A DNA stretch of 60,595 nucleotides, the filler included. It is 3 parts of 3 records of this genome, joined end to end, with 100 filler letters (N's around TTAATTAATTAA, not from the genome) between each part and the next. Parts side by side here need not be neighbours in the genome. Positions count along the whole stretch, not along the records: positions 29,351 to 60,595 come from SRR2962707_1611; 2 more parts are not named here. One strand, written 5' to 3'. Position 1 is the first letter of the stretch; every line of letters begins with the position of its first letter. A program made the translations under genes and the position numbers. The notes under the pieces are model-generated. The model was not told where the DNA came from, ran no database searches, and worked only from the letters and a program-made list of their open reading frames with translations. Positions 29,351 through 54,419 of the stretch are shown here, in pieces.

Positions 29351-29905
29351 ACGAATGCCCAGTGTATCGGCGTTGTAGATGGTCGGGATCAGCGTCATCC
29401 AGCCGGTGACGTCCTTGGAAAAGGTCTTGCTGCCTTGGCCATCAACGAAACCAACCGTGCTTGGTGCCGTTCCTTGCGCAACGGTGCTTTCAGGTGTGAG
29501 CTTGCCAGTGGTGAAGATCGGCGAAATCTTGTCGAAATTTTTGATCTTGGAGGTGTCCATCGCCTGCAGATTGCCAGTTGGCCAGATCTTCTTGCAGATC
29601 CAGTATTCGATATCGGCGATATCGAAGCTCTTGGGCTGGGTGGCGGCACGCTGGGTTACGCTGTCGGAATCAAGCGCTGTCATTTCAAGGTTGAAACCCA
29701 GATCTTCTTTCACCTTGATGCCAACATCATTGAGGTTGGACACGCCGGTGCCGAACTGGCGCAGGGTCACGTCCTTGATGTTCTGGGCCCAGATGGTCGG
29801 AAACCCGGTCACGGCGCCCGAGCCGATGGCAGCGCCCGCAACTGCGGCCGTGCCCTTGAGCAGCGAGCGGCGGCTGACGGAGCTGGATTTTGGTGTATCA
29901 GTCAT
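29351..29905 (-). CDS. ABC substrate-binding protein (PotD/PotF-like), Tat-exported, 3' truncated
   Basis: SRRSLLK twin-arginine signal; GAAGGAG RBS; follows a PotA-like ATPase. Confidence 0.8.
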
Positions 29906-29954
29906 GTGCATTCTCCTTCGTGGTGATTGGCATAGTGGTGATTGTCGGTGCGGA

Positions 29955-30959
29955 TCAGCTTGCCAGACGGTGTGCGTCATCCGGCTTCCAGTCGAGAAAG
30001 ACCGCCTGGCCAATCTCCAAAGGTGTTTGAGAAAACAGCGCGTCGGGAATACTGACGCTGATCGGGTCTGGGTTTGCCGTATCTCCGGCTGCGTTGAGCG
30101 CGACCGAAAAGCTGGTTCCGAGATATTCAATTTCACGCACAACGGCTTGAAACCCGGCACTGCCCTCCGGCCTGGTCTTGGCGACTGTGATCTTGTCCGA
30201 ACGGATTGCCAGGTGGGATTGACCATCGCTCATGACATTGTGCCCACCCATGAACTGGGCGACGAATTGCGTCTGCGGCCGGTTGAAGACATCCTGGGCG
30301 CTGCCGACCTGTTCGATGCGGCCATTGTTCATGACGATAATCTGGTCAGCCAGAGACAGCGCTTCATCCTGGGAGTGGGTGACGTGAATGAAGGAAATCC
30401 CCAATTCGCGCTGCAACCGCTTGAGTTCCGAGCGCATGCGCAGACGCAGGAACGGGTCGAGCGCGGACAAAGGCTCGTCGAGCAACAGGATCGACGGATT
30501 GGTAATGAGGGCACGGGCAAGGGCGACACGCTGCTGCTGGCCGCCTGACAATTGCGCGGGCAGACGCGCGGCAAAGTTTGCCATGTCCACGAGCTCAAGC
30601 AGTTTCATCGCCTCTGACAGGCGCGCCTGCTTCTCAGCGCCCTTCATTTTCAGGCTGAAGGCCACGTTTTCGGCAACGCTGAGATGCGGGAAAAGCGCAT
30701 AACTCTGAAACATCATCGCTGTACCGCGTTCAGCCGGCGGCAAATCGGTGATGTTCTTGGCGCCGAGCAGGATATCGCCCCGCGAGACCGTTTCATGCCC
30801 GGCGATCATCCGCAGTGTGGATGATTTTCCGCATCCCGACGGACCAAGCAGGCAGGTGTAGGAATTGCCGGGAATTTTCAGCGAGATGCCGTCAACGGCA
30901 ATCGATTGCCCGTAGGATTTTGTGACTGCAATCAGTTCTGCCGCGGATTTGTCCGTCAT
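29955..30959 (-). CDS. ABC ATP-binding protein (PotA-like)
   Basis: GPSGCGKS, FQSYALFPH, LSGGQQQR and LLLDEP motifs; TOBE-like tail. Confidence 0.93.
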   Translation of the reverse strand: MTDKSAAELIAVTKSYGQSIAVDGISLKIPGNSYTCLLGPSGCGKSSTLRMIAGHETVSRGDILLGAKNITDLPPAERGTAMMFQSYALFPHLSVAENVAFSLKMKGAEKQARLSEAMKLLELVDMANFAARLPAQLSGGQQQRVALARALITNPSILLLDEPLSALDPFLRLRMRSELKRLQRELGISFIHVTHSQDEALSLADQIIVMNNGRIEQVGSAQDVFNRPQTQFVAQFMGGHNVMSDGQSHLAIRSDKITVAKTRPEGSAGFQAVVREIEYLGTSFSVALNAAGDTANPDPISVSIPDALFSQTPLEIGQAVFLDWKPDDAHRLAS

Positions 30960-30989
30960 GGAATGGCTCCTTGTCTCTCCCATCAGGTG

Positions 30990-31005
30990 AGCAAGAGCCG
31001 TGCCA
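30990..31005 (-). promoter_or_regulatory. Sigma-54 (-24/-12) promoter
   Basis: TGGCAC-GGCTC-TTGCT about 30 bp upstream of the ATPase start. Confidence 0.85.
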
Positions 31006-31020
31006 GAATTCCAGAACATA

Positions 31021-31241: not shown

Positions 31242-31919
31242 ATGTCAGGCTCGACAAGCCGGTCGGACCGGGTCGTTGCCGGACTTCAGCGCGCAATTTT
31301 TGAACACAAGATAGCGCCGGGGACTAAACTATCAGAGGATGAAGTCGGCGATATCTTCGGCGTCAGCCGCACCATCGTCCGCTCTGCACTTCAAGCGCTG
31401 GCCCATTCCCAGCTTGTCACCATCGAGAAAAACCGCGGCGCATTCATAGCCAGTCCGACACCTGAGGAAGCGCACGAAGTTTTTGAAGCGCGCGGACTGA
31501 TCGAACCCCGGGTTGCGGCGATGGCTGCCAAGCGTATGACCGAGCAATCGCTTGAAGTCCTGCATGCCCATATTGAAGACGAGCACAGGGCCATGCATGC
31601 GGGCGACAAGGGGCAAGCCCTGTCGCTGTCAGGCGGGTTCCACCTCAAGATCGCCGATATTGCCGGCCACGATGTCTTCACCGGCTTCATCAACGCATTG
31701 ATTTCACGATCCTCCCTGATCATCGCGCTGTATTGGCGCCGAGCGGATACGACCTGCGAAAGCCATTCCCATCACGCCTTGATGAAAGCCTTTGAAAGCC
31801 GTGATGCGGCTGCCGCAGAGGAGATCATGCGCAGCCATATTGTTGATCTGCATTCCGGGCTCGACTTGAGCAATCCGAAGAATGCACCGTTGTCGTTGTC
31901 GGATGCCCTTAGACCGTAG
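31242..31919 (+). CDS. GntR/FCD family regulator
   Basis: PGTKLSEDEVGDIFGVSRTIVRSAL HTH; FH...H...H FCD pattern; start uncertain (GTG 31200 or ATG 31242). Confidence 0.92.
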   Translation: MSGSTSRSDRVVAGLQRAIFEHKIAPGTKLSEDEVGDIFGVSRTIVRSALQALAHSQLVTIEKNRGAFIASPTPEEAHEVFEARGLIEPRVAAMAAKRMTEQSLEVLHAHIEDEHRAMHAGDKGQALSLSGGFHLKIADIAGHDVFTGFINALISRSSLIIALYWRRADTTCESHSHHALMKAFESRDAAAAEEIMRSHIVDLHSGLDLSNPKNAPLSLSDALRP

Positions 31920-32287: not shown

Positions 32288-32303
32288 TGGCGCATGTCTT
32301 GCT
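32288..32303 (+). promoter_or_regulatory. Sigma-54 promoter of atzF
   Basis: TGGCGC-ATGTC-TTGCT about 70 bp upstream of the ORF. Confidence 0.7.
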
Positions 32304-32375: not shown

Positions 32376-34127
32376 ATGTACAGTCAGAAAACCGCAAAGA
32401 GCTTCGAATTCTGGCAAGCGATGTCGCCGCGCGAAGCAATCGCGCATGCCTTTCGTGCCCACAAGGCCTATGACGATCCGGCCATGTTCATCACATTGCG
32501 CGAAGAGGCTGACTGCATGGCCATGGCCGAGCGGCTCGAAGCCGAAGGTCCGGAGGGAAAACCGCTCTACGGCCTGCCCTTCGCGGTCAAGGACAACATT
32601 GACGTGGCCGGCCTGCCAACCACCGCGGCCTGTCCGGAAGCTGAATATGTGGCCGAGGTTTCGGCCTTTGCGGTGGCTAGGCTCGAACAGGCCGGCGCCA
32701 TCTGCATCGGCAAGACCAATCTTGATCAGTTCGCCACCGGCCTCGTCGGCGTGCGCTCGCCCTATGGCGTCCCGCGCAACAGCCTCCGGGCGGATCTCAT
32801 TCCCGGCGGTTCCAGCTCCGGCTCGGCGGTGGCAGTCGGTGCGGGTATTGCTGCCTTTTCGCTCGGCACCGACACTGCGGGCTCCGGCAGAATTCCCGCC
32901 GGGCTCAATGGTATCGTCGGGCTGAAGCCCAGCCTCGGCCTGCTGTCGGCCACCGGTATGATGCCGGCCTGCCGCACGCTGGACACCATCTCCATTTTCG
33001 CCGCAGAGACTACCGACGCGGCACTGGCCACCTCGGTGGCCCAGGCCTATGACGCATCCGATTTCATGTCACGCCCGCTTCCAATGGCCGGCATTGCTCC
33101 GGTTGGCAAAACCTTCACCGTCGGGGTTCCGCTACCGGATCAAAGACTGTTTTTCGGCGATGCCGCCGCGCAGGAAGCCTATGAGGCCGATCTGGCAACG
33201 CTGGCTGAACTCGGCGGACAGATCGAGGAGATCGATTTCGAGCCTTTTCATGCCGTGGCGCGGCTGCTTTATGAAGGCCCCTGGGTGGCCGAGCGCTATC
33301 ACGCCGTCCGGGCCCTGATCGAGAGCACCCCGGAGGCGCTGCACCCCGTCACCCACAAGATCATCAGCGGTGCATCCCGGTTTTCCGCCGTGGACACCTT
33401 TGATGCGATCTACAAGCTGGCGGAGATGAAGCGGAAGATCGCGCCGGTGATCGAAGGGCTGGACTGTTTCGCTGTGCCGACGCTTCCCGCGGCCTACACC
33501 GTTGCCGAGGTCGAGGCCAATCCGGTTGAACTCAATTCCAATCTCGGCACCTACACCAATTTCGTCAATCTGCTCGACATGGCGGCGATCTCGGTGCCTG
33601 TCGGCGAGCGGTCTGACGGCCTGCCCTCGTCCCTCACCCTGATCGGACCCGCCGGATCCGACGCATTTCTCGCCGGCATTGCCCTCAGGCTCGAAACCGG
33701 TGAGAGCGCGACCACCGGGATTGCCGCCCGCCCCGGTGAAATCCTGATCTGTGTCGTCGGTGCGCATTTGAGCGGAATGCCGCTCAACCACCAACTGACA
33801 GATCGCAACGCGCGGCTTGTGGCGGCCACACTCACCGCGCCCGATTATGCGCTCTATGCGCTGTCCGGTACCGTGCCGCCAAAACCCGGTCTTGCCCGGA
33901 TGGGCGCCGGCGAAGGCGTGTCGATAGAGGTGGAAGTCTGGGCGCTGGATGCCGCCGGCTTCGGCAGTTTCGTCGATGGTGTGCCTGCCCCGCTCGGCAT
34001 CGGCACTGTCCGGCTTGAGGATGGATCACAAGTGAACGGCTTCATTGCCGAAGGCATTGCCATCGAACAGGCAACCGACATCTCGAGCTTCAAATCCTGG
34101 CGGAGCTATATCGCAAGCTGTTCCTGA
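32376..34127 (+). CDS. atzF: Allophanate hydrolase
   Basis: Amidase signature (AVKDNID, KTNLDQFATGLVG.RSPYG, GGSSSGS, GTDTAGSGR) plus C-terminal VVGAHLSGMPLN domain. Confidence 0.93.
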   Translation: MYSQKTAKSFEFWQAMSPREAIAHAFRAHKAYDDPAMFITLREEADCMAMAERLEAEGPEGKPLYGLPFAVKDNIDVAGLPTTAACPEAEYVAEVSAFAVARLEQAGAICIGKTNLDQFATGLVGVRSPYGVPRNSLRADLIPGGSSSGSAVAVGAGIAAFSLGTDTAGSGRIPAGLNGIVGLKPSLGLLSATGMMPACRTLDTISIFAAETTDAALATSVAQAYDASDFMSRPLPMAGIAPVGKTFTVGVPLPDQRLFFGDAAAQEAYEADLATLAELGGQIEEIDFEPFHAVARLLYEGPWVAERYHAVRALIESTPEALHPVTHKIISGASRFSAVDTFDAIYKLAEMKRKIAPVIEGLDCFAVPTLPAAYTVAEVEANPVELNSNLGTYTNFVNLLDMAAISVPVGERSDGLPSSLTLIGPAGSDAFLAGIALRLETGESATTGIAARPGEILICVVGAHLSGMPLNHQLTDRNARLVAATLTAPDYALYALSGTVPPKPGLARMGAGEGVSIEVEVWALDAAGFGSFVDGVPAPLGIGTVRLEDGSQVNGFIAEGIAIEQATDISSFKSWRSYIASCS

Positions 34128-34762
34128 ATGCGGGTTGAAAAGCGCTTCCAGGCACCCTCGACATAGCCGATATGGGCCTGCATGGCCCGTTCGGCCGTGT
34201 CGCGGTCAGCCCGGATGATGGCTTCGACCACGGCGGAATGCTCTGCATGCGAGGCCGCAAGCCTGCCCGGCGTTCCAAACTGCGCGCGGCGGAACGGCTG
34301 CAGTCTCAGCCGCGTGTTGAACGTCAACTCCGCCAGATAGGCATTGCCGGTTCCCTCGTAGATGGCCGAATGAAACGTTTCATTGGCAAGTGCGTAGTCA
34401 TCCCCCGCGCCCGCCCGGACGAGCGACGCCATCTCATCGTGCAATGTCTGAAAATCATGGCGCTGCCTGGCGCTCATCTGAAGCGCACTCTGCCCGGCGC
34501 ACATGGTCTCGAGCTGCGCCATAACGAAGAAGATATTGGCAAGCTCCTGATCATCCGGCTTGGCGACAATCGTTCGCCGGTGCGATGATTGCACCACCAG
34601 CCCGGTCACGCCAAGCTTGCGCAATGCCTCCCGGACCGGTGTGCGCGAGACATTGAATTCGGCGGCCAGCCGGGTTTCATCGAGCACGGTTCCGGGCTCG
34701 AGATCGCCGCTCACAATCCGCCGGGCAAGCTCATGTCGTATGGTCTCGGCACTGGTTCGCAT
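34106..34762 (-). CDS. GntR/FCD family regulator
   Basis: LDETRLAAEFNVSRTPVREAL HTH; last gene of the minus-strand operon. Confidence 0.92.
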   Translation of the reverse strand: MRTSAETIRHELARRIVSGDLEPGTVLDETRLAAEFNVSRTPVREALRKLGVTGLVVQSSHRRTIVAKPDDQELANIFFVMAQLETMCAGQSALQMSARQRHDFQTLHDEMASLVRAGAGDDYALANETFHSAIYEGTGNAYLAELTFNTRLRLQPFRRAQFGTPGRLAASHAEHSAVVEAIIRADRDTAERAMQAHIGYVEGAWKRFSTRIQEQLAI

Positions 34763-34792: not shown

Positions 34793-35176
34793 TCAGGGCG
34801 TGTCTATAACACTCACATGCGCCGCCACAACCCGCCAGCCGTCTGCCATCCTCACCCAAGTCTGCATTTGGCGTCCGGTTTTACCCGGAGCAGATACGCG
34901 GGAAAACAGCGTCGATGCCGTAGCGAAATCATTGCCGTAGGTGGTGATGACAGTGCGCGACAGTGCGCGCTCCAGGCCCGCAGAGGGTCTTGCGTTTCTG
35001 AACGCCAAGATCTCGGCCGCGCCGTAGAGGTTTTCGCCGCCGCCATAGCGGATCGTGTGCTCGCTTTGCCAGAACAGCTCGTCGAGCACCGCCACGTCAT
35101 TGCTGACCAGCGCCTGCTCATAGCGTGCGAACGCGGCGGTCATCTCTTCATGCACATGCGGGTCATTGATCATCAT
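34793..35176 (-). CDS. atzH: AtzH/HpxZ (DUF3225) family protein
   Basis: [35 protein letters not shown] and WRVVAAHVS; context with atzE and atzG. Confidence 0.88.
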
Positions 35177-35949
35177 TGCCGGGATGATCCTTGCTGGGTC
35201 ATCCGGTCACGCAAATCGCGCAGGAAGGGAATGGTATCGAACTGGTCATCCTGAACGAAATCCCAGGCCACGCCCCTGGGCCGGGGCGCGGTGTTGCCGG
35301 TCACGATCAGCTCTTTTTCGGTGGCGATGAAATCCAACGGGGAATCATGGGCCATCATGAAAACCTTGCTCTCGGGCACCAGTTGCGAAGAATGAATCGT
35401 AGTCGCCATCGGCGTGTCCCGTCCGATGATGCCGAGCTCGCGGAAAATGCCGGTTTCCAGATCGGCAAATCCGGCACCCTTGCCTGTGCGACCGCCCTCG
35501 CGGCTCACGGCCACCGAACCGACAATGCAGAAATCAAGCGGCTCGACCTCTTCAAAGCCGATCCGCTCGCCATGCATCATGTAGCCTTCCGATGTGGCGG
35601 CGAGTTCGAACGAGACGCCCTTTTCGATGAGCACCTTCGGATCAATCCTGAGATAGGGGAACTCCCGGGTCAGATAGGGCACCGGCGCATAGAGCATCTT
35701 GCCTTCGTACAGCGCTCGAAGCCGCAACGGAATTTGCGGCGGGTCGGGATTGCACTTGACTGTTTTGGCCCGTTTCCATTCTTCCGTCTGCGCCAGATGC
35801 CAGGCAGCCTGATCCGCGCCGATGAAATTCGGGATGTGGCTCCAGGTTGGCCCCATCGCATGGCCGCCGGCGTCGAGAAGATCCCAGATCTCGCCGCGCA
35901 CCGCATCCTTGTTCTGGTCACGGCCGGACCATTTGCCCTGTTTGGTCAT
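35173..35949 (-). CDS. 5-formyl-THF cyclo-ligase paralog (COG0212/MTHFSD type)
   Basis: [40 protein letters not shown] and [12 protein letters not shown] overlaps on both sides. Confidence 0.82.
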
Positions 35950-37358
35950 GCTGCTGCTCCTTCCAGTTTGGCGACGGGGGCGGATGCATGGCCGTTTTCC
36001 TCGAGCCAGGCGGCAACCCGCAATGCAATGTCCTCGCGCCAGGGCGCCGCAATGATCTGAACGCCGATTGGCAGCTTGCTGCCTTCAAGCCATACCGGCA
36101 CTGTCACCACCGGCAGACCGATGAACGATATAGGTTGGGTGAAAACACCGAGATTGGGCCGGACCGGGAGTTCCTTACCGCCCAGCACGAAAGTCTTCTG
36201 GCCGATCAGTGGCGCCACACAGGGAGTCGCGGGTGCAATCAGCACATCCACCTCTTCGAACAGCGCCCGCATTTGCGTGCGAAACAGCGCGCGGAATTTC
36301 TGCGCCTTGGCGACCCAGGCGCCGGAGATCATGGCACCGGCCAATAGGCGATCGCGTACATCCGGATCAAAATCCGCGTGCCTGGTCTTCAACCGGTCAA
36401 GATGCAGCGACGCACCCTCGGCCATAGTGATCAGATAGGCGCTGGCCCGAGCCAGTGCCGCATTCTCCACATCACGTGTCTCGCTCACCTTGAGCGCCGC
36501 GCAAATCCTGGTCACCGCGTCAAAGGCTTCCGCGTGACCGCCTTCCTCGAAATAGCCGCCGGCCTTGGCGATGCGCAAACCGTCAAGGTCGGCTGGAGGA
36601 TTGAGGGCCACCGGCGGATCGATGCGGTCCGTGCAGACAGGGTCGGCGGGATCTGCCCCAGTCATCGCATTGTAGGACAGGGCAAGATCGCTGACCGACC
36701 GGGCGAGCGGCCCGAGATGATCAAGGCTTGCAACAAATGGGAAAGAGCCGCTGCGCGAAAGACGGCCATAGGTCGGCTTCAAGCCGAACAGCCCGCACAA
36801 GGACGCAGGCACCCGGATCGAACCGTTGGTATCAGAGCCCAGCGTCAGCGGCACAAATCCCGCCGCGGCAGCCGCGCCCGATCCGCCCGAGGATCCGCCG
36901 GTCATGTGTTCGCGCGCATGCGGGTTGCGCGAGGGACCATCATGGTAATTCTCGCCGGTGAAATCATAGGCGTATTCGCCCATGTTGAGCGCACCCACCA
37001 GTATGGCGCCGTTTGCCTCGAGCCGCTCAATCAGCACAGCATCCTTTGAAGCCGGCGCCGTGTCACGGTTGATCTTGGAGCCCGCCAATGTGGCGATGCC
37101 TTTGACGTCAAAGAGGTTCTTGACCGCAAAGGGGACACCGGCCACCGGTCCGGGATCTTCGCCGCGCTTGATACGCGCGTCGATGTCTGCGGCCCTCGCG
37201 CGCGCCCGCTCTTGGGCAACACAGGTGAACGCGCCAATGGCGGTATCGTGCGCGCCGATCTTGTCGAGGCATGCATCGATCACGGCGCTCGCTGAAACCG
37301 TCCCGCCGCGCACCGCCTCGGCGATTTCAGCTGCTGTTGCGACTGTCCAATCGGTCAT
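35946..37358 (-). CDS. atzE: AtzE-family amidase (1-carboxybiuret hydrolase-like)
   Basis: AVKNLFD, NMGEYAYDFTGEN, GGSSGGS, GSDTNGSIR and FTQPISFIGLP; preceded by a small atzG-like gene. Confidence 0.88.
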   Translation of the reverse strand: MTDWTVATAAEIAEAVRGGTVSASAVIDACLDKIGAHDTAIGAFTCVAQERARARAADIDARIKRGEDPGPVAGVPFAVKNLFDVKGIATLAGSKINRDTAPASKDAVLIERLEANGAILVGALNMGEYAYDFTGENYHDGPSRNPHAREHMTGGSSGGSGAAAAAGFVPLTLGSDTNGSIRVPASLCGLFGLKPTYGRLSRSGSFPFVASLDHLGPLARSVSDLALSYNAMTGADPADPVCTDRIDPPVALNPPADLDGLRIAKAGGYFEEGGHAEAFDAVTRICAALKVSETRDVENAALARASAYLITMAEGASLHLDRLKTRHADFDPDVRDRLLAGAMISGAWVAKAQKFRALFRTQMRALFEEVDVLIAPATPCVAPLIGQKTFVLGGKELPVRPNLGVFTQPISFIGLPVVTVPVWLEGSKLPIGVQIIAAPWREDIALRVAAWLEENGHASAPVAKLEGAAA

Positions 37359-37543
37359 GGCTTGAACACCGGAGCAGGTTCCACGTCATCTTCCATCGGC
37401 AAGGCCAGAAGCCCGGCAGCAATGCCGCGTGCGGAAGTTAGGTGGAAGGTGATACCGGGCCGATAGGCCGGTTCATCGGGCAGGCCGAGATAGGCGAGCA
37501 TGCTTTCGGCAATCGCATCTGCGTCGAATTCGTCCTGGCTCAT
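37355..37543 (-). CDS. atzG: AtzG/HpxX-like (DUF4089, GatC-like) small subunit
   Basis: 62 aa ending EPAPVFKP; translationally coupled to atzE. Confidence 0.8.
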
Positions 37544-38220
37544 GCATGCACCTCCTTTGGCTCAAAAGCCGCGGCAAGCGCGCTCAAAGGCGTTGCCCAG
37601 CCGACAATTCCACCTTGCGCGGTGATCATCTCGATGGTGCCGGTCTTGAAGTGTTCAAAATAGCTTTCCGTCGCATCGGTGACCAGCAGGCATTCATAGC
37701 CCCGGTCATTGGCCTCGCGCATCGAAGTCTGCACGCAGACTTCCGTGGTCACCCCGGCAAAGACCAGATGGGTGATGCCTGCAGCCTGCAAACGTTCATG
37801 CACTCCGGTGTTCCAAAACATCCCCTTGCCCGGTTTGTCGATCACCCACTCGCCTTCCACCGGCGCCAGCGCCTCGACAATCTGATTGCCTGCCTCGCCG
37901 CGCACCAGGAGCCGACCCATCGGGCCTTCCTCGCCGATCCGCACCGAGGCACTGCCGCGGGCCACCTTGCTCGGCGGGCAATCCGACAGGTCCGGCAGAT
38001 GCGCTTCGCGGGTATGGATCACCGTCAGGCCACGATCCCGGAACAGCGCCAGCAGACCGGCAACCGTCGGGATGATCGCAGAAAGCCGCGAGACATCGTT
38101 TCCGAGTGCTGCACCGAAGCCACCGGGCTCGATGAAGTCGCGTTGCATGTCGATGACCACCAGAGCGGTTCCAGCCACCGGCAGCTGGTAATCATATGGG
38201 TCCGCTTTCACGCTCAGCAT
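37540..38220 (-). CDS. trtA: Triuret hydrolase-like cysteine hydrolase
   Basis: D-K-C triad (IDMQRDF, DKPGKG, TTEVCV); GGFG..LGND, EVCVQT, TESY and QGGIVG match the residues I recall distinguishing TrtA from BiuH. Confidence 0.8.
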
Positions 38221-44985: not shown

Positions 44986-44999
44986 AATTGTATACAATT
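44986..44999. promoter_or_regulatory. GTATAC palindromic GntR-type operator
   Basis: Perfect 14-bp palindrome AATTGTATACAATT. Confidence 0.75.
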
Positions 45000-46022: not shown

Positions 46023-47372
46023 TCAGCTGAACCGTTTGGCGGCGGCGGAATGGTCTGCGATCAGTTTGGCCACATCAAGCCCGATGATGTGTCCGTCCAT
46101 GACCCGCCACTCGCCAGCGACCATCACCCGGTCGGCGCGGTTGGCGCCGCAGTGAACCAGGGCTGCGATTGGATCATGATTTCCTGAAAACCGCATCTCG
46201 TCGAGCGTGAACATCGCCAGATCGGCCTGCTTGCCAACCGCGATTTCGCCGATATCACTGCGGCCCAAGCATTTTGCCGATCCGGTCGTCGCCCAGCGCA
46301 AGGCGTCGCGGTGGGTAATCCGCTCAGCGGAGTTGTAACCCAGCCGGTTGACCATCAACGCATGCCGCACCTCTTCCATCAGGTTCGAGCTGTCATTGGA
46401 GGCCGAGCCATCGACGCCAAGACCAACCGGGCTGCCTGCCGCTTCGAGATCAAGCGTCTTGCAAAAGCCAGAGGCCAGAACGGCATTGGATGTCGGGCAG
46501 TGGCAGACGCCGACGCCGTGCTTGCCGAGCTTCTCGCAATCCTCGCAGGTAAAATGGATCCCATGCGCCAGCCACACCCTGGGCTGCAGCCAGTTGCAAT
46601 CCTCAAGCCAGTCGATCGGCCGGTAGCCGAAGGTCTCGATGCAGAACGCCTCTTCATCCACGGTCTCGGCCAGATGCGTGTGCAGCCGACAATCATAGGT
46701 CTCGGCGAGAGTCGCGCTTTCGCGCATGACATTTCTCGAGACATTGAACGGCGCGCACGGGGCAAGCGCAATCTGGATCATCGCGCCATCGGAAGTGTCG
46801 TGATAGCGCTTGAGCACCCGCTCGCTGTCGGCCAGAATCGTGTCATCGTCCTGGACGATGTGATCATCAGGAATGGCGCCGTCCTTCTTGGACAGCGACA
46901 GCGATCCGCGCGTCACCGTGGCGCGAATGCCGAGCGCCTTCGCTTCCTGCACCTCGATGTCCGTTGCATCCTCGAGACCATCATAGACCATGTAATTGTG
47001 GTCCATCGCCGTGGTGCAGCCCGACAGCAGCAGTTCGGCATAAGCCAGCCGGGCGCCGACGCGAAACATGTCGCGGTCGAGCTTGCTCCAGATCGGATAC
47101 AACGCCTGCAGCCAGGGGAATAGCTCTTTGTCCCGCGCCGCCGGATGCGCCCGGCACAGGGTCTGGAAAAAATGGTGGTGCGTGTTGATCAGGCCAGGGA
47201 TGATCGCGTGGTTCGACGCATCGAAGATCTCATCCACATCGGTGACCGGCGCCCTGCCCGCAGGCACAAGCTCAACGATACGGCTGCCGGATATGACAAT
47301 GCCGCCACCTGCGTTGTCCGCCAGGATCGCCAGCGGGTTCTTGATCCAGATTTTCATGCGTTGCCTATCCAT
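46023..47372 (-). CDS. Amidohydrolase, 8-oxoguanine deaminase-like
   Basis: NTHHHFFQTL, PCAPF, HTHLAE and GVDGSASND; paralog of 21375-22715; start at 47372 or 47357. Confidence 0.85.
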   Translation of the reverse strand: MDRQRMKIWIKNPLAILADNAGGGIVISGSRIVELVPAGRAPVTDVDEIFDASNHAIIPGLINTHHHFFQTLCRAHPAARDKELFPWLQALYPIWSKLDRDMFRVGARLAYAELLLSGCTTAMDHNYMVYDGLEDATDIEVQEAKALGIRATVTRGSLSLSKKDGAIPDDHIVQDDDTILADSERVLKRYHDTSDGAMIQIALAPCAPFNVSRNVMRESATLAETYDCRLHTHLAETVDEEAFCIETFGYRPIDWLEDCNWLQPRVWLAHGIHFTCEDCEKLGKHGVGVCHCPTSNAVLASGFCKTLDLEAAGSPVGLGVDGSASNDSSNLMEEVRHALMVNRLGYNSAERITHRDALRWATTGSAKCLGRSDIGEIAVGKQADLAMFTLDEMRFSGNHDPIAALVHCGANRADRVMVAGEWRVMDGHIIGLDVAKLIADHSAAAKRFS

Positions 47373-47415: not shown

Positions 47416-47431
47416 AGCAACACCCATGCCA
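47416..47431 (-). promoter_or_regulatory. Sigma-54 promoter
   Basis: TGGCAT-GGGTG-TTGCT about 45 bp upstream of the deaminase-like gene. Confidence 0.75.
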
Positions 47432-47476: not shown

Positions 47477-48712
47477 ATGAAAGTCGATCTTGTTCTTCGC
47501 AATGCCCGGGTGCAGGGTTTTGATGCCCTCATCGACATCGCGGTCACCGACGGGATCGTGACCGCGCTTGAGCCGAAGATTGTTTGCGAGGCCGTTTTGG
47601 AAGAGGATCTGGGTGGCAAGGTTGCGTTCGCGGGCTTTGTCGACAGCCATGTGCATCTCGACAAGGCCTGCATTCTCGACCGTTGCAGCGTTTGCGAAGG
47701 TACATTGCAGGAAGCCGTGCGCGAGACCGCCGTTGCCAAGGCAGGCTTTACCGAGGACGACGTCTATGCCCGCGCGGCCTCAGTGGTCGAGAAGGCAATC
47801 CTTCATGGCACAACACGCATGCGGACATTTGTCGAGGTTGATCCGCGCGCCGGACTGCAGTCTTTCAACGCCATTCGCCGGATCAAGGCCGATTACGCCT
47901 TCGCGCTCGACATCCAGATTTGCGCTTTCGCCCAGGACGGGCTGACCCAGGAGCCTGAAACACTCGCTCTGCTTGACCGTGCCCTTTCCGATGGCGCCGA
48001 TCTGGTCGCAGGCTGCCCTTACACCGACCCGGATCCGGTCCGGCATATTGGCCTGATTTTCGACATGGCCGAAAAGCACGGCGTCGATGTTGATTTCCAT
48101 CTGGATTTCGATCTGGATCCCACAGCGTCCAATCTGCCCGCGGTGATTTCCGAGACGGTAGCGCGCGGCTATCAGGGCCGGGTTGCCGTCGGCCACATGA
48201 CCAAGCTCTCCGCCATGCCTCGCGACCAGCTTCAGCAACTCATCAGCGATCTGCACGCGGCCGGAATTGCGCTTGTGACGCTGCCTTCAACCGACTTGTT
48301 CCTGATGGGACGGGAGCATGATCACAATGTGCCCCGCGGCGTTGCGCCTGCACATCTTTTCGCCCAAGCCGGTGTGAACGCCGCTATCGCCACCAACAAT
48401 GTGCTCAACCCATTCACGCCCTACGGCGACGCTTCGCTGTCCCGCATGGCCAATCTCTACGCCAATGTGATGCAGCTCTCCCGCAACGATGAGCTGGGTA
48501 CAGTCTTCTCGATGGTCAGCGACGCTCCGGCGCACATTCTGCAAACGCCCTACGGCCTCACGCTCGGCGGTCCGGCCGACATCGTGGTGCTGGATGCGAC
48601 CGACCCGGTCTCCGCGATCCGGGAAATCGCGCCAGCGCTGTGCGGATGGAAAAATGGCCGCAAGAGCTTCTCCCGGCCAGCGCCGCTTTTGCATCGGCCG
48701 GCTGATGGTTGA
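47477..48712 (+). CDS. Amidohydrolase, cytosine deaminase (CodA)/AtzC-like
   Basis: GFVDSHVHLDKA, HGTTRMRT, FHLDF, VGHMT and ATNNVLNPFTPYG motifs. Confidence 0.85.
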   Translation: MKVDLVLRNARVQGFDALIDIAVTDGIVTALEPKIVCEAVLEEDLGGKVAFAGFVDSHVHLDKACILDRCSVCEGTLQEAVRETAVAKAGFTEDDVYARAASVVEKAILHGTTRMRTFVEVDPRAGLQSFNAIRRIKADYAFALDIQICAFAQDGLTQEPETLALLDRALSDGADLVAGCPYTDPDPVRHIGLIFDMAEKHGVDVDFHLDFDLDPTASNLPAVISETVARGYQGRVAVGHMTKLSAMPRDQLQQLISDLHAAGIALVTLPSTDLFLMGREHDHNVPRGVAPAHLFAQAGVNAAIATNNVLNPFTPYGDASLSRMANLYANVMQLSRNDELGTVFSMVSDAPAHILQTPYGLTLGGPADIVVLDATDPVSAIREIAPALCGWKNGRKSFSRPAPLLHRPADG

Positions 48713-48733: not shown

Positions 48734-49681
48734 CTATTGCTTTTCCGTGTTTGAAATCCGCGGCGCCCCGCTGGCCGAGTTGAGGTAGCGGTTCTCCCAC
48801 CAGGAAAACACGATATCGCGCAGCGCTGAATCATCGTCATCGCCATAGATGGCCCGCCGCGCCAGCGCCTCGAACTTGGCTGCTTCTTCCGCATCAAGGG
48901 TTATCTCCACCGCCGTCTCCGGCAGCGGCGTGTTGGCGAATTGCGGTACATAGGCTGCATCGGGCACGAGCTCGCGCGTCGCCTTGATTTGCGAATTGAC
49001 AAAATCCTTTGGCGTCCGCTGGCTCCTGAGTGTTGGCGTTTCCGGGACGGAAGCCATCTCCTCGTCAGTTGCGTCGAGGATCTGCAGCCTTATCGGCTTG
49101 AGGCCAAAATTGCTGGTACGCATCACGTCCGCTCCGCAGACATTGGGGACCGCCAGCACATCCATCAGTGCTATCAGATCGATGTGATCGCCTTTCTGGG
49201 ACTGCTGCCGGGTGATGGTGGCGCTGCCTTCGAGAGTCACCTCCGTGCACATGAACATGTTGAAACTGTCATGCACATCGTCAGGGGTCAGCCCGTACTC
49301 ACGCTGCGCTTCGGACTGGATATCGTGGCAGTTGGTATGCGTGTGAAAGCCATAGGCGCTTTCGTAGAGATATGCGCTGCAGCGGGGAAACAGGACATCG
49401 TTGCGGCCGTAGGTGTCCTCGGCGATGTACATCATTGCCCGTTCGCGCGGCGGCGCCGACCAGAGATAGGTTCCCTTGCCGGGATTGAAGCCATGCACCG
49501 TGCGGGTGCGCCCGCAATGCATGAATTCCTTGTAGTCATGCAGATTGAAGCAATTGAAATCAACACATTGGGCGCCGAATACCTGCTCGATCCTGAGGAT
49601 CTGGCCCTTGCGGACCTCGAGCGCCTTGCCGGTTCCCGGCTGCATGGTCCATTCAAATACCGGTTGACGCTCTGACATCAT
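48734..49681 (-). CDS. DUF1989 (urea carboxylase-associated/CgdAB-like) protein with C-terminal extension
   Basis: GQILRI....GAQCVDFN, DTYGRNDVLFPRC, HTNCHD, DVHDSFNMFM and AVPNVC motifs. Confidence 0.8.
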   Translation of the reverse strand: MMSERQPVFEWTMQPGTGKALEVRKGQILRIEQVFGAQCVDFNCFNLHDYKEFMHCGRTRTVHGFNPGKGTYLWSAPPRERAMMYIAEDTYGRNDVLFPRCSAYLYESAYGFHTHTNCHDIQSEAQREYGLTPDDVHDSFNMFMCTEVTLEGSATITRQQSQKGDHIDLIALMDVLAVPNVCGADVMRTSNFGLKPIRLQILDATDEEMASVPETPTLRSQRTPKDFVNSQIKATRELVPDAAYVPQFANTPLPETAVEITLDAEEAAKFEALARRAIYGDDDDSALRDIVFSWWENRYLNSASGAPRISNTEKQ

Positions 49682-49836
49682 TTGACCTCCGGCTGACCAG
49701 CGGGCACCGGCTCGCTTTCGGAGATGGCGCGCCTGACCAGAGCTTCGAGCGACGGCGCTGCGCCATCCTCCACAGCCCGCTCAAGCAGCGCTCGCTGCTG
49801 GTGATTGAGCCATAGCTTGAGTGTCTTTTCTGTCAT
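49678..49836 (-). CDS. Small protein, ribbon-helix-helix-like
   Basis: 52 aa, GGAG RBS, ATGA overlap with the DUF1989 gene; beta-helix-G..S-helix pattern. Confidence 0.6.
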   Translation of the reverse strand: MTEKTLKLWLNHQQRALLERAVEDGAAPSLEALVRRAISESEPVPAGQPEVK

Positions 49837-49871: not shown

Positions 49872-49879
49872 TGTATACA
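49872..49879. promoter_or_regulatory. GTATAC operator copy
   Basis: TGTATACA about 35 bp upstream of the small ORF. Confidence 0.5.
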
Positions 49880-50046
49880 CGATTTTGTTTTCTTGCTACC
49901 ACTGATTTCGGGCTGAAACACAGTTTGGAACGGCCCTAAACGGGAATGAAAGGCAGTAGAAGTATTCATATTGGTCAATCCGCCTCGTCTTTAGGCAACA
50001 ACCGCCCAATAAATGGACATTTGATCGATACAATAAATACGCAATT

Positions 50047-50056
50047 TTGTATACAA
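50047..50056. promoter_or_regulatory. GTATAC operator copy
   Basis: TTGTATACAA about 25 bp upstream of gntR. Confidence 0.7.
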
Positions 50057-50080
50057 TAGCGCACTTAACGCGAGCACGAC

Positions 50081-50842
50081 ATGACCAACAAGCCGAATAG
50101 AATTGATCAGGCCTACACGGCGCTCAAAAGCGCCATCATCGAGCAGGCGCTGCGTCCGGGTGACAAGCTTCCCGAGGACGAAGTCGGGCAATTGTTCTCG
50201 ATGAGCCGCACTCTGGTCAGGCAGGTCTTCAGCCGGCTGAATGCCGAGGGGCTGATTGAGATCGGCGGCAAGCGGCCCGCCACAGTTTCCATTCCCAGCC
50301 TCGACGATGCCGTGGCCGCTTTCGAGGTCCGCCAGGCGCTGGAGCGGGAAGTTGTGTCCCTGGTCATCAAGCGCTGGACGCCCGAGCATGCCGCAAGGCT
50401 CGAGGCGCACCTTGCCAAGGAAATCGCGGCTGCGAAAGCGGGCAACGCCCCAACTTCCATCCGGCTTGCCGGAGAGTTCCACACGCTTCTGGCCGAAATG
50501 ACCGGCAATCCATTGCTGTCGCGCTTCGTCTCCGACGTTGTCTCTCGCTGCTCGGTGATCCTGGCCGTTTTCGGCCGGCCCCATTCGGCCGATTGCGGCG
50601 TCCATGAACATCGTGAAATCATAAACGCCATAGCTGCGGGAGACGCCGCCAAAGCCTGGGATCTTATGCATCACCATCTGGGTGAGGTTGAAGCCCGCGC
50701 CTTGATCACTTCCCCTGAAACCTCCCCCAGAACCCTTGCCGACATGCTCTCGCCCTATGTCGATGGTGGAGGCATCCCGGCCCCCAAACCCGCACAAGGC
50801 CGGGGCCGGCCGAAGCTGCAAGTTATCAAGGAAAACAGATGA
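50081..50842 (+). CDS. GntR/FCD family regulator
   Basis: PGDKLPEDEVGQLFSMSRTLVR HTH; paralog of 31242-31919. Confidence 0.92.
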   Translation: MTNKPNRIDQAYTALKSAIIEQALRPGDKLPEDEVGQLFSMSRTLVRQVFSRLNAEGLIEIGGKRPATVSIPSLDDAVAAFEVRQALEREVVSLVIKRWTPEHAARLEAHLAKEIAAAKAGNAPTSIRLAGEFHTLLAEMTGNPLLSRFVSDVVSRCSVILAVFGRPHSADCGVHEHREIINAIAAGDAAKAWDLMHHHLGEVEARALITSPETSPRTLADMLSPYVDGGGIPAPKPAQGRGRPKLQVIKENR

Positions 50843-51623: not shown

Positions 51624-52733
51624 ATGACTTCTTCCTACATGATTGACCGCCGTCGCTTCCTGGGCACCTCGGTTGCTGCAGGCGCGATGGTTCTGGGTGG
51701 CGGCCTGATGTCCGCCCGCGCGGCCGACACCACCATCGGCATGATCTATGTCGGCCCGAAAGACGATTTCGGATGGAACCAGGCCCACGCCGTGGGCGCG
51801 CAGGCACTTCGCGAATTGCCGGGCATCACGGTGGTTGAGGAAGAGAACGTGCCCGAAACAGTGGCGGTGTCGAAATCGATGGAATCGATGATCAATCTCG
51901 ATGGCGTCAATTTGCTGTTCCCGACCTCGTTCGGATATTTCGACCCCTTCATGATCGATATGGCTGGCAAGTATACCGATGTGCAATTCCGTCACCCGAC
52001 CGGTCTGTGGAGCGCCGACAAGCATCCGATGAACCTTGGCGGCTATTTCTGCTACCTCGATCAGGCTCATTATGTGAACGGAATCGCGGCCGGTCTGTCG
52101 ACCACATCCAACAAGATCGGCTTCATCGCCGCCAAGCCCATCTCCCTGGTTCTGCGCAACATCAATGCGTTCACCCTCGGGGTGAAAAAGGTCAATCCGG
52201 ATGCGGAAGTTCGCCTGATCATGACCGGCGAGTGGTCGCTGCCGGTCCGTGAAGCCGAAGCCACCAATGCGCTCATCGATGTTGGCTGCGATATCATCGC
52301 CTGCCATGTCGACAGTCCGAAAGTGATTGTCGAAGCCTCCGAAGCCCGTGGCGTCAAGACCTGCGGTCACAATGCTGATCAGTCGCCGCTCGCACCGAAC
52401 GGCTTCATCACCGGCGCCGAGCTGAAATGGGGCACGGTCTACACCGAATATGCCGGATTGATCACCAAGGGCGAGGCAATCCCGAACGTCAATGAAGGCG
52501 GATACGACCGCAACATGGTTGCATCCTCGCCGTTTGGCGCTGGTTGCAGCGAAGCCGGGAAATCGGCGGCGCTCGGCGCCATCGAAGAACTCAAGACCGG
52601 CGCACCGATCTTTGTCGGACCGCTCAAGGACAACAAGGGCAACGTCGTGGTCGAGGGCACGCTCGGACTTTATGACGGGGCGCTGTGGGGCACGGACTAT
52701 CTCATCGAAGGCGTGGTCGGCTCGATCACATAG
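51624..52733 (+). CDS. BMP-family ABC substrate-binding protein, Tat-exported
   Basis: DRRRFL signal; YVGPKDDFGWNQAH; close paralog of 43629-44744. Confidence 0.92.
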   Translation: MTSSYMIDRRRFLGTSVAAGAMVLGGGLMSARAADTTIGMIYVGPKDDFGWNQAHAVGAQALRELPGITVVEEENVPETVAVSKSMESMINLDGVNLLFPTSFGYFDPFMIDMAGKYTDVQFRHPTGLWSADKHPMNLGGYFCYLDQAHYVNGIAAGLSTTSNKIGFIAAKPISLVLRNINAFTLGVKKVNPDAEVRLIMTGEWSLPVREAEATNALIDVGCDIIACHVDSPKVIVEASEARGVKTCGHNADQSPLAPNGFITGAELKWGTVYTEYAGLITKGEAIPNVNEGGYDRNMVASSPFGAGCSEAGKSAALGAIEELKTGAPIFVGPLKDNKGNVVVEGTLGLYDGALWGTDYLIEGVVGSIT

Positions 52734-52752
52734 CCTTGCCCGGATGAGATAC

Positions 52753-52794
52753 GCGCCGGGGACCACCCTTGGGGGCTGAGGAGGTCCCCGGCGC
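52753..52794. other. Stem-loop after the substrate-binding gene
   Basis: GCGCCGGGGACC...GGTCCCCGGCGC 12-bp stem. Confidence 0.6.
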
Positions 52795-52838
52795 AATTTC
52801 GTTCAATGCAATGCAAACATGTCACCAGAGGGTTTCCA

Positions 52839-54419
52839 ATGGCATTTGCAGACACTCCTTGCCCGGACTTCATCCTTTCGGCGGCCCATATCCTGACCGG
52901 AGCCGATGCATCCGGCGCGATGCAGGTGGTTGATGACGGTGCTATGCTGGTTCAGGACGGGATCATTGCCGCGATCGGCACGCTTGCGGATCTGGCACGG
53001 GACAATCCCGATATCGAGGTCAGAGGTGGCAGGGACATGGTGGCCATGCCGGGTTTTGCAAATTCGCATCACCACTTCGGCCTGACACCGCTGATGATGG
53101 GAGTGCCCTTCGCGCCGCTGGAACTCTGGCTGCCGCAATTCCGCAAGATGCGGCAGGTGAACCTGCGGCTCGACACGCTGTATTCGGCGATCGAGATGCT
53201 TGAAAGCGGCACCACCACGGTCCAGCACATCAGTTCCGGCCTATCCGGTCCGGAAGAGAACTGGGATCGCGCCACCGACGAGATCATCTCCGCCAATGGC
53301 GAAATCGGTATGCGCAGCGGCTATTGCTTCATGATCCGCGATCAGAACATCTTGTCTTATGAGGATGACGCCAAAGTGCTGGCGGCCTTGCCCGAAGAAG
53401 TCCGAGAATGGCTTGCGCCTTCCTTGCAGGCGGCCAAAACACCGACCAGCGCCTACATGGATTTTTTCAGCCGGCAGCATCGAAAATGGTCCGAGCGCAG
53501 CCCGGACATGGTACGGATGAACCTCGCGCCGGCCAATCTTCACTGGTGCAGCGACGACAGCCTGCAGATGATTTTCGCGACAGCACGGTCTCATGGCGCC
53601 AGCATACACATGCATCTGCTGGAGACCGAGCGTCAGGCCCGCTATGCGACTGCGCGCTTCAAATGCTCTGCCGTCGAGCATCTCGATCGTCTGGGATGCC
53701 TGGGGCCGGAACTGACGCTGGGCCACGGCAACTGGATGACCCGCGAAGATCTGGATCGGTTGTCCGATTGCGGCTGCATGGTGTGCCACAACGCAAGCTC
53801 CGGTCTGCGGCTCGGCAGCGGCATCGCGCCGGTCAATGAAATGCAAAGGCGCAATATTCCAGTGGCGCTCGGCGTCGACCAGTCCAACATCTGCGATGAC
53901 CGGGATATGACCATCGAGATGAAACTGGTGTGGGCGCTGCACCGCGAAACCGGCATGTGGAATGACCGGCTGGAGGCTTCCCGCGTGCTGACCATGGCGT
54001 CCGAGCATGGCGCAAAGTCAGTAGGTTTCGGCAAGATCACCGGGCGTCTTGAGGTCGGCCGGCAGGCCGATATCGTTCTGATGAGCAAAACTGAAATCGG
54101 CCGCCCGGTGCTCGATCCCCGCACCCCGATTGCCGATGCGGTGCTCCATCGCGGCAGCAAGTCCGCCATCCGCCAGGTCTATGTCGGCGGTCGTCTGGTC
54201 GTCGACAACGGCCGCGTTACCACAATCGACCGCGATGCCGTCATCGCCGAAATCTCCGACATCATGTCCGCGCCAATGACCGAAACCGAGCACAAGGCCG
54301 ACAAGATGGTGGCCGCCATGATGCCCGCCCTCGAGGCTTTCCACCGCGCCCATTCGCCTGACGCCGGATATGCCCCTTACCGGTACAACGCGATGAATGA
54401 TTCTGGGCAGCCTAGATAG
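52839..54419 (+). CDS. Metal-dependent amidohydrolase (SsnA/TrzA/AtzA-like), substrate unknown
   Basis: PGFANSHHH, ESGTTT, HMHLLE, LGHG, LGVD and G.LEVG.QAD motifs. Confidence 0.85.
   Translation: MAFADTPCPDFILSAAHILTGADASGAMQVVDDGAMLVQDGIIAAIGTLADLARDNPDIEVRGGRDMVAMPGFANSHHHFGLTPLMMGVPFAPLELWLPQFRKMRQVNLRLDTLYSAIEMLESGTTTVQHISSGLSGPEENWDRATDEIISANGEIGMRSGYCFMIRDQNILSYEDDAKVLAALPEEVREWLAPSLQAAKTPTSAYMDFFSRQHRKWSERSPDMVRMNLAPANLHWCSDDSLQMIFATARSHGASIHMHLLETERQARYATARFKCSAVEHLDRLGCLGPELTLGHGNWMTREDLDRLSDCGCMVCHNASSGLRLGSGIAPVNEMQRRNIPVALGVDQSNICDDRDMTIEMKLVWALHRETGMWNDRLEASRVLTMASEHGAKSVGFGKITGRLEVGRQADIVLMSKTEIGRPVLDPRTPIADAVLHRGSKSAIRQVYVGGRLVVDNGRVTTIDRDAVIAEISDIMSAPMTETEHKADKMVAAMMPALEAFHRAHSPDAGYAPYRYNAMNDSGQPR

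Follow-up and report, generated by a model that had tools for sequence, protein, structure and literature searches.

The closest described systems to the locus studied here are the operon of Herbaspirillum sp. BH-1 and Rhizobium leguminosarum 3841, which encodes TrtA, TrtB, BiuH and AtzF (PMC7948467, available portion), and the atzDGEHF operon of Pseudomonas sp. ADP together with atzG-atzE-atzH clusters (PMC6219798). Linkage of trtA/biuH-type genes to a bmpA-nupABC importer has been published for nitrifiers (PMC12625717), and the available portion of PMC7948467 leaves the source of triuret in nature unresolved. The window analyzed here is a stretch of 60,595 nucleotides, made of three contigs joined by N44-TTAATTAATTAA-N44 linkers at 12093-12192 and 29251-29350, and the locus occupies positions 29351-54419. 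With the BH-1/3841 operon it shares trtA, biuH, atzF, a DUF3225 gene and the diagnostic residues, and it adds atzG-atzE, a formamidase, a COG0212 protein, a 2OG oxygenase and a DUF1989 module; the last four are not named for that operon in the available portion of PMC7948467. With the Pseudomonas system it shares the atzG-atzE-atzH order, atzF and the AtzH Tyr/Arg spacing, but it lacks atzD, carries COG0212 inserted between atzE and atzH, and has BiuH as a second route. We read the locus, with a probability of about one in two, as a nitrogen-starvation (sigma-54-type) scavenging mosaic of a Hoeflea-like bacterium, in which three tiers of accessory genes surround the core and would serve as side branches feeding formyl- and amidino-ureides into it. 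Through the accessory enzymes, the cell can probably also draw on relatives of triuret and biuret that bear formyl or amidine groups.

Judged from sequence, the core consists of the triuret/biuret pathway as published, extended by AtzG/E/H and set behind sigma-54-type promoters; family cut-offs, diagnostic residues and gene order all fit the lower pathway (trtA, biuH, atzG/atzE, atzH and atzF) proposed in an earlier note on this DNA. The TrtA triuret hydrolase (37540-38220, minus strand) matches PDB 6XIX at 5e-94 and keeps the D24/K129/C162 triad along with F35, N41, E160, Y187, Q202 and I205, the residues given in the available portion of PMC7948467; position 134 is M rather than A, and A134S is neutral in TrtA according to the same source. 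BiuH (39787-40503, minus) scores 416 against a cut-off of 370 for NF050097 and carries the Y35/Y41/D160/T187/V205 pattern (TrtA numbering). The AtzE amidase (35946-37358, minus; NF006631, 700 against 461) is accompanied by the AtzG small subunit (37355-37543, minus), which is AtzG-like by Pfam. The DUF3225 protein of the AtzH/TrtB/HpxZ family (34793-35176, minus; HpxZ/AtzH, 200 against 135) has Tyr19/Arg43 spaced as Tyr22/Arg46 of AtzH, and its identity ranges to the AtzH and TrtB subtypes overlap. AtzF, the allophanate hydrolase (32376-34127, plus), scores 744 against 511 for TIGR02713, and no AtzD ring-opening hydrolase was found among the cluster's proteins. The BMP/Nup ABC system would import triuret and biuret; TrtA would convert triuret to carboxybiuret, which would reach allophanate either via AtzEG and AtzH or via decarboxylation and BiuH, and AtzF would complete the breakdown. 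TrtA-like proteins at 54% were considered as a third subfamily, a candidate rejected because the TrtA residue pattern is present in them.

All genes named earlier at 29351-54419 are present as intact open reading frames, and the two ABC systems and three GntR/FCD regulators were recovered alongside a third, orphan BMP-type binding protein. Since the window joins three contigs, position 29351, where the span called an island in the earlier note begins, is not an island boundary but the end of a contig, and the first binding-protein gene is truncated there. Integration of an island at rnpB was rejected, as rnpB lies on another contig. The truncated gene encodes a TAT-exported ABC substrate-binding protein (29351-29905, minus; full-length relative in locus L095) and is followed by a PotA-like ATPase of ABC system 1 (29955-30959, minus) and GntR/FCD regulator 1 (31242-31919, plus), with a GTATAC box at 31120. 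The trtA operon begins with the BMP-family binding protein BMP1 (43629-44744, minus) and ends with GntR/FCD regulator 2 (34106-34762, minus); two permeases (42445-43554 and 41531-42448, both minus) and the NupA-type ATPase of ABC system 2 (38225-39790, minus) lie between them.

Promoter motifs common to the cluster genes, another claim of that note, are borne out by two elements that both exceed shuffled expectation. The sigma-54 consensus has five matches in the window against a chance mean of 1.2 (five being reached in 1 of 100 shuffles), and four of the five lie upstream of cluster genes: ABC system 1 (30990-31005, minus; found in 3/5 related loci), atzF (32288-32303, plus; a consensus match), the trtA operon (44819-44834, minus; 40/60 related loci versus a 0.9% background), and the deaminase and 2OG oxygenase pair (47416-47431, minus; a consensus match). 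The TGTATACA box occurs three times against 0.10 by chance (0/100 shuffles), always in the cluster's intergenic DNA: once at 44989-44996, unstranded and replaced by a TGTATGCA variant in relatives, and twice between DUF1989 and GntR3 (49872-50055, unstranded; found in 3/5 related loci). Sigma-54-type promoters on four separate units are what one would expect if regulation alone had assembled the locus, with common nitrogen control and an importer gathering independent nitrogen-scavenging enzymes for unrelated substrates such as free formamide, formylated thiamine pyrimidine and various nucleobases. The independent gain and loss of accessory genes and the presence of at least four amidohydrolase clades near trtA fit such gathering as well, and were the links only regulatory, the locus would amount to a known pathway in an ordinary version that happens to be rich in genes. 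We consider this account rather unlikely, given the operon structure and binding-protein evidence below.

The earlier note had also assigned eight extra enzymes to one upper pathway, which would deaminate, oxidize, open and deformylate damaged purines or s-triazines to yield triuret or biuret. For comparison we used an order-level sample of 200 Rhizobiales genomes besides genome G001, 55 of them with a trtA/biuH-type gene. Such genes are common in the order. Across this sample the extra genes fall into three tiers rather than one linear upper pathway. The prediction of co-conservation with trtA/biuH held for the formamidase, the COG0212 clade and the 2OG oxygenase, which recur inside or beside the operons, and failed for two deaminases that are mostly unlinked (an 8-oxoguanine-deaminase-like gene near trtA/biuH in 4/60 genomes, a cytosine-deaminase-like gene in 2/32). 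In favor of a single pathway, PMC7948467 (available portion) leaves the source of triuret unresolved, and each of the seven gene sets that we tested shows enrichment in trtA/biuH genomes, with p-values that ignore kinship and genome size. The whole block is kept in several Hoeflea genomes (L236, L239), and another genus has genes of the module interspersed among trtA, biuH, amiF and 2OG, yet Hoeflea was the one genus in which all eight enzymes were seen together, G001 carries a deletion of COG0212, and the window lacks the atzD ring-opener carried by 10/69 related operons. Moreover, the product of 8-oxoguanine deaminase is urate, which has its own pathway. With genes that come and go independently across operons, the claim of one upper pathway was not supported, and we regard it as improbable.

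The first tier of the mosaic comprises the formamidase, COG0212 and the 2OG oxygenase. The AmiF-type formamidase (40500-41519, minus; NF009803, 571 against 406) overlaps biuH by 4 bases. Like the AmiF formamidases of PDB 2DYU and 5G3O it has the E-K-C triad and CHD motif, but here it is embedded between a permease and biuH. In the order sample all 25 formamidases at least 77% identical to it occur in trtA/biuH genomes, 22 of the 25 within 12 kb, although most trtA/biuH genomes lack the gene (present in 25/55). Among the best 80 trtA loci, formamidase is found at 31, COG0212 at 31 and the 2OG oxygenase at 20, with formamidase near trtA also in Pseudomonas, Variovorax and Alloalcanivorax. Within operons, formamidase and COG0212 are uncorrelated (Fisher p 0.23, 69 loci; kinship and genome size ignored). 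Formamidase lies away from biuH in 18 of 42 informative metagenome loci, in some beside uracil-catabolism-like genes, and adjoins nitrile hydratase in two genomes; these settings favor gathering by regulation, against which stands the placement of formamidase and COG0212 inside the operon with 4-base overlaps (22/25 and 14/15). Literature searches pairing biuret hydrolase with formamidase, and formamidase or amiF with cyanuric acid, biuret or nitrogen source, returned no relevant paper, and a search on formylbiuret found nothing on topic; Robinson 2018, Aukema 2020, Cameron 2011 or their supplements could already show the neighborhood.

The COG0212 protein (35173-35949, minus), a 5-formyl-THF cyclo-ligase paralog of a trtA-linked clade, has 4-base overlaps with both atzE and atzH. 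Its structure model shows a cyclo-ligase fold (pLDDT 96; 2JCB match, E 9e-10) with R154, the GKGxG loop, D163 and D202 kept, and it carries the IPNF, NPDxPQ, RxGKGxG and HD motifs, which we take to be those of COG0212/MTHFSD paralogs. It is not a canonical 5-formyl-THF cyclo-ligase by our searches, with no NCBIfam match and a best phmmer E of 0.45; identity to solved cyclo-ligases is 15-20% by structure, and the folate-binding region aligns only with gaps. All 15 homologs at least 50% identical occur in trtA/biuH genomes, 14 within 12 kb, although most such genomes lack the gene (15/55). Another clade, at 29-36% identity, was near trtA in none of the five loci examined; its neighbors are NMT1-like ABC genes. 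COG0212 proteins at 53-56% occur with a BMP ABC system and without biuH on three plasmids, two of which adjoin thiamine-type genes, whereas thiamine-gene clustering is absent for 14/15 members of the trtA-linked clade. A link of the family to thiamine (Pribat 2011, as cited in PMC4120688, available portion), together with the thiamine-adjoining units, again favors a regulatory grouping. Fold and ATP/Mg motifs are shared with the paralog of that source, and identity to the wider family is 30-40%; unlike that family, the present clade is distinct (N-terminal W7, G9 and R10; T155) and tied to ureide operons rather than NMT1/thiamine ABC genes. Among the papers that a literature search listed for COG0212, none appeared to concern ureides, and Pribat 2011 or supplements could already show the neighborhood. 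One Hoeflea genome with the whole block has COG0212 reduced to 36 residues.

In a damaged-base repair role, COG0212 would use ATP to re-form purines from the ring-opened formamidopyrimidines Fapy-guanine and Fapy-adenine, in parallel with 8-oxoguanine deamination, and would supply ordinary purine salvage. Such closure mirrors 5-formyl-THF cyclization, and COG0212 is the sole enzyme in a LysR-COG0212-BMP unit. The formation of Fapy lesions competes with that of 8-oxopurines (PMC12135143, available portion). COG0212 and a deaminase also occur together in operons (9/10, p 0.014; kinship and genome size ignored), but mostly within one marine clade, and the gapped alignment of the folate-binding region gives a pterin-like pocket no support. 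The BMP importer is present at 63 of the 80 trtA loci against 31 for COG0212, and because most loci without COG0212 keep the importer, its ligand is more likely a ureide. We consider repair very improbable. A scheme in which COG0212 and 2OG feed AtzD (formylbiuret to 5-azauracil to cyanurate) was rejected, as atzD correlates with neither (p 0.74 and 0.15).

For the first tier we tentatively favor a formyl branch, at somewhat less than even odds. TrtA/BiuH-type hydrolysis of N-formylbiuret or N-formylurea would leave formamide, which AmiF would cleave to formate and ammonia. Members of the COG0212 clade would use ATP to activate an N-formyl group on an imported ureide, acting as a deformylase or cyclo-dehydratase, and the 2OG oxygenase would oxidize a related small heterocycle. 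After triuret, TrtA works best on formylurea (0.07 U/mg versus 0.0004 U/mg for biuret; Table 2 of PMC7948467, available portion), at 0.3% of the triuret activity; activity of BiuH on formylurea was not found in the available literature on the enzyme. The 2OG-Fe(II) oxygenase (DIOX_N; 45051-46013, minus) has the HxD, H and RxS motifs, and 11 of 13 homologs at least 54% identical are in trtA/biuH genomes, 8 of the 13 within 12 kb. Genes co-inherited with trtA/biuH point to the real substrate range, and because one COG0212 clade is so tightly linked, the candidate substrates for this family, which also occurs in plants, are few and cheap to try. Hoeflea alexandrii DSM 16655 carries this first tier but has no DUF1989 module at the site.

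The second tier is the module of a DUF1989 metalloprotein with a C-terminal ribbon-helix-helix-like extension (48734-49681, minus, a correction of its earlier orientation), a conserved 52-aa partner missed in the earlier gene list (49678-49836, minus), GntR/FCD regulator 3 (GntR3; 50081-50842, plus), a flavin-reductase-like protein (PF01613; 50839-51543, plus) and the orphan BMP2 (51624-52733, plus), 62.6% identical to BMP1. The 52-aa ORF precedes DUF1989 in 22/23 loci, and complex prediction scored the pair at 0.74 versus 0.00 for the best control, with a partner pLDDT of at least 78 and runs agreeing on at least 77% of contacts; the score mark is reached by 51/78 solved and 2/108 mismatched pairs. 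Strand-to-strand pairing is predicted between extension and partner, with variable outward strand residues. There is no ribbon-helix-helix Pfam match, and that label is our own tentative reading. The DUF1989 fold is shared with CgdAB (UAAP1/2) and the TMAO demethylase Tdm, and D41, C101, H115, C118, C182 and D185 correspond to Tdm metal residues D198, C263, H276, C279, C343 and D346. CgdAB is carboxyguanidine deiminase, a pair of paralogs that goes with urea carboxylase. Unlike UAAP and Tdm, the protein falls far below the cut-offs of both (for UAAP, TIGR03424/03425, 70 against 285 and 69 against 206 bits), is a single gene with no paired paralog, lacks a GcvT domain, and has an extension predicted to pair with the 52-aa protein. 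ESM Atlas searches gave family names only; a plasmid search with DUF1989 gave no match and a literature search on it no relevant paper.

Co-location of the DUF1989-flavin reductase module with trtA/biuH holds in two lineages, but the module is unlinked in 4/4 genomes of the order sample and in 5/8 of the genus of genome G041. In that genus BMP2, GntR3, DUF1989 and flavin reductase occur in all eight genomes with a DUF1989 protein at least 66% identical; three have the module with trtA on one side and the biuH operon on the other, one has it beside a 59% 2OG and one beside ABC system 1. The 8/8 genome co-occurrence is weak because biuH is common there (29/46), and the three linked cases may represent one event. 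Among 31 Hoeflea genomes the module is beside a deaminase in 4/4 carriers and adjoins the trtA/biuH cluster, and DUF1989 is near formamidase in L157, L160, L189, L212 and L226. At 19/19 loci no permease gene was found within 3 kb of BMP2. As a paralog (63%) of the binding protein encoded in the operon, and never accompanied by a permease of its own, BMP2 argues against gathering by regulation alone. This add-on module, sometimes with an amidohydrolase pair, would borrow the trtA-operon permease and make a core substrate from a compound resembling triuret or biuret, most likely an amidino- or formimino-ureide, a possible but doubtful role. For ligand screening, the module supplies a defined enzyme together with its partner and a binding protein.

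On a bolder reading, which we think unlikely, the accessory genes encode a network of enzymes, not described before, that supplies the triuret/biuret pathway. Proteins of the COG0212 clade would then act on N-formyl-ureides at the expense of ATP. DUF1989, the 52-aa subunit and flavin reductase would form a two-subunit metalloenzyme of a new kind and, together with the 2OG oxygenase, would produce triuret, biuret or formylbiuret out of oxidized nucleobase debris. If so, no member of the widespread orphan COG0212 family would have been given a substrate before this clade.

The third tier of the mosaic, as part of the same overall reading, would consist of two general nucleobase-type deaminases recruited locally. 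The 8-oxoguanine-deaminase-family amidohydrolase (46023-47357, minus; NF006055, 635 against 532) has PCA in place of PCS, where we take Q, Y, PCS and SN to be the motifs of 8-oxoguanine deaminase, and is 43% identical to a PCS-type copy on another contig. The cytosine-deaminase/AtzC-like amidohydrolase (47477-48712, plus) has altered motifs (HLDF and TNNV, where CodA has HxxE and a metal Asp motif) and scores below the family cut-offs, and is not assigned to cytosine deaminase CodA. BguH was rejected as an amidohydrolase model, being a nucleoside-deaminase relative (PMC11647477, available portion). One conserved upstream amidohydrolase at trtA loci was likewise rejected: those adjoining trtA fall into at least four clades in a quick tree with long-branch warnings. 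A further deaminase-type amidohydrolase (52839-54419, plus) keeps HxH, HxxE and D, and its plasmid relatives sit in another operon.

By sequence, the core genes of the cluster (29351-54419) fall within the triuret/biuret system known from the literature, to which the AtzG/E/H route (accessible text of PMC6219798) is added. Every gene named in the earlier note proved to be an open frame with the family match claimed for it. TrtA (37540-38220) matches PDB 6XIX and retains D24, F29, F35, N41, E72, K129, K132, E160, C162, Y187, Q202 and I205, while BiuH carries the alternative residue pattern (reference residues from the accessible part of PMC7948467). AtzE, AtzF and AtzH/HpxZ pass curated cut-offs. 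Linkage of the bmpA-nupABC importer has already been published (PMC12625717, accessible part). The gene order BMP-permeases-biuH-ATPase-trtA-atzH recurs in most of the best 80 of 587 trtA loci (49 full length), a choice that biases the set to close relatives. In 40 of 60 loci (background 0.9%) a sigma-54 consensus lies ahead of the BMP gene, and TGTATACA is presumably a FadR-type box. Ten of 69 related operons also carry atzD, in most cases placed between biuH and the gene for the ATPase.

The eight additional enzymes had been proposed to form one upper pathway, co-conserved with trtA/biuH. Each protein was searched in the same 200 order-level genomes plus comparison genome G001, and gene distances were then measured (by eye for the deaminases); identity thresholds were chosen after gaps in the match lists were seen. 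A trtA/biuH-type gene occurs in 55 of the 200 genomes. Co-conservation holds for formamidase (at least 77% identity), found in 25 genomes that all belong to the 55 and lying within 12 kb in 22 of them; for COG0212 (at least 50%), found in 15 genomes that likewise all belong to the 55, with 14 copies within 12 kb; and for the 2OG oxygenase (at least 54%; 13 genomes, 11 among the 55, 8 near). The 8-oxoguanine-deaminase-like protein (60 genomes, 29 among the 55, 4 near) and the cytosine-deaminase-like protein (32, 20 and 2) are mostly unlinked to trtA/biuH, and no near copies were found for DUF1989 (4 genomes), flavin reductase (at least 71%; 4 genomes) or the last amidohydrolase (at least 55%; 5 genomes), whose carriers all fall among the 55. 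Enrichment p-values leave kinship out of account. Across the 69 operons the accessory genes for the most part show no correlation with one another (formamidase versus COG0212, p 0.23), so the eight do not constitute one unit; the 2OG oxygenase and the deaminase are correlated (p 0.0001). The accessory genes of the pathway are real, and a single upper pathway leading to triuret is unlikely, with a chance of roughly one in eight. The texts consulted make no mention of formamidase, COG0212 or DUF1989 in a triuret/biuret context.

Beyond gene identity, co-inheritance, fold and catalytic-motif retention, which are direct observations, we infer a chemistry for the accessory enzymes. By family, two of the three genes in tight linkage act on formyl groups, and among alternative substrates TrtA works best on formylurea (accessible part of PMC7948467). 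TrtA would take the terminal nitrogen off formylurea and decarboxylation would then give formamide, the substrate expected for the formamidase AmiF; formylbiuret would enter one step before formylurea. Formylurea and formylbiuret presumably arise from 5-azauracil and oxidised nucleobases, an origin for which literature searches returned no confirmation. Among 80 metagenomic formamidase loci, 42 have sufficient flank and 24 of these have biuH, trtA or the importer nearby, a count slightly too low because TrtA matches at 54% fell below threshold; four formamidase loci adjoin DUF1989, and one locus (L189) unites trtA, the DUF1989 module, formamidase and a deaminase. In seven loci formamidase is accompanied by GTP-cyclohydrolase-like, DUF1688, UPRTase and aspartate-dehydrogenase-like genes, a neighbourhood we take to be URC-like (uracil catabolism), and in two it stands in divergent orientation to genes for nitrile hydratase alpha/beta and for an NMT1-like binding protein.

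In COG0212 the cyclo-ligase fold is preserved, as are the Arg/Gly-loop/Asp residues, which presumably bind ATP and Mg, and this retention makes ATP-dependent activation of an N-formyl oxygen its likely step. Three Rhodobacterales plasmids (L119-L121, about 14000-20000) carry LysR-COG0212-BMP ABC units without biuH, which would fit one-step release of urea or biuret; in two of the three the BMP is 70-73% like BMP1, the binding protein of the trtA operon. Two of the three also adjoin thiamine-type genes, which favours the alternative that accessory genes cluster only through common nitrogen control and a shared importer, with unrelated substrates. A second, distant COG0212 unit lies alongside in L121, and a thiamine operon in L120. 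The 29-36% COG0212 clade was near trtA in none of five loci examined, of 22 such matches. Five loci (L114-L118) combine, by eye, an RpiR-like regulator, a distant COG0212 (sometimes two copies) and an NMT1/THI5-like ABC unit. In G001, the COG0212 gene (12272-12451 of its locus L001) has been cut down by an internal deletion to the first 36 residues, in an otherwise complete Hoeflea cluster. A gene of the polysaccharide-deacetylase family is paired with an amidohydrolase gene in or near three trtA or ABC-1 clusters (one, L095, by Pfam, the rest by eye).

The genes on the right of the cluster form a second module. The orphan binding protein BMP2, DUF1989 and GntR3 occur together in all four order-sample loci, joined by flavin reductase in three; the G168 module locus holds both amidohydrolases as well. 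H. alexandrii and three further close loci lack the module at this position. Within the genus of comparison genome G041, DUF1989 matches occur in 9 of 96 genomes, eight with the four-gene unit. In three of the eight this unit separates trtA from the BMP-biuH operon, and it adjoins a 59% 2OG oxygenase in one and ABC system 1 in one; the five carriers outside those three have biuH elsewhere in the genome (base rate 29/46). Among 31 Hoeflea genomes four carry the module, adjoining the deaminase every time. BMP2 shares 62.6% identity with BMP1, and in 19 of 19 loci (two from one genome) it lacks a permease within 3 kb, which suggests that BMP2 relies on the permease of the trtA operon. The same small partner ORF accompanies three weaker DUF1989 paralogs (55-57%), which lie among sugar-type ABC genes with no trtA.

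That partner is a 52-aa ORF, missed in the earlier note, that overlaps the start of DUF1989; it is present in 22 of 23 DUF1989 loci and has no Pfam match. In predictions made without the analyst's own alignments, it contacts DUF1989 residues 252-299 and loops 110-116 and 185-194, scoring 0.74 (best control 0.00) against a mark that 51 of 78 solved pairs and 2 of 108 mismatched pairs reach; at least 77% of contacts are shared between runs, with partner pLDDT at least 78. The models support a putative binding, and the pass may stem from resemblance to ribbon-helix-helix dimers of solved structure. All six residues that correspond to the metal site of TMAO demethylase are conserved in DUF1989 (accessible part of PMC12560246). 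DUF1989 falls below the cut-offs of both the CgdA/B and Tdm families. By analogy with CgdAB, presumably a deiminase, we would guess at a metal-dependent deiminase; alternatively, DUF1989 could act oxidatively together with the flavin protein.

The window joins three contigs through artificial 100-base linkers (12093-12192 and 29251-29350), so genes flanking a linker are not neighbours; the cluster's left edge is a contig end, and rnpB and everything leftward lie on other contigs. Most cluster proteins share 81-98% identity with their counterparts in Hoeflea loci, whereas for MraY, encoded on the first contig (1-12092), the figures are 81-87% to two Rhodobacterales MAGs and 61-63% to Hoeflea. 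This difference between the first and the cluster contig (29351-60595) points to an assembly that is either mixed or carrying acquired DNA. After the cluster, 54466-58892 holds an integrase C-terminal fragment, a helix-turn-helix-like small ORF (55674-55955) and a VapE-like protein, and reads as a mobile-element remnant, which was not seen at the corresponding G001 site. On the middle contig, 19926-22724 encodes a guanine-deaminase-like protein and a PCS-type 8-oxoguanine deaminase, the latter just 43% like the clade of the cluster's deaminase, and a short ORF at 17845-18408 resembles, by eye, the canonical 5-formyl-THF cyclo-ligase.
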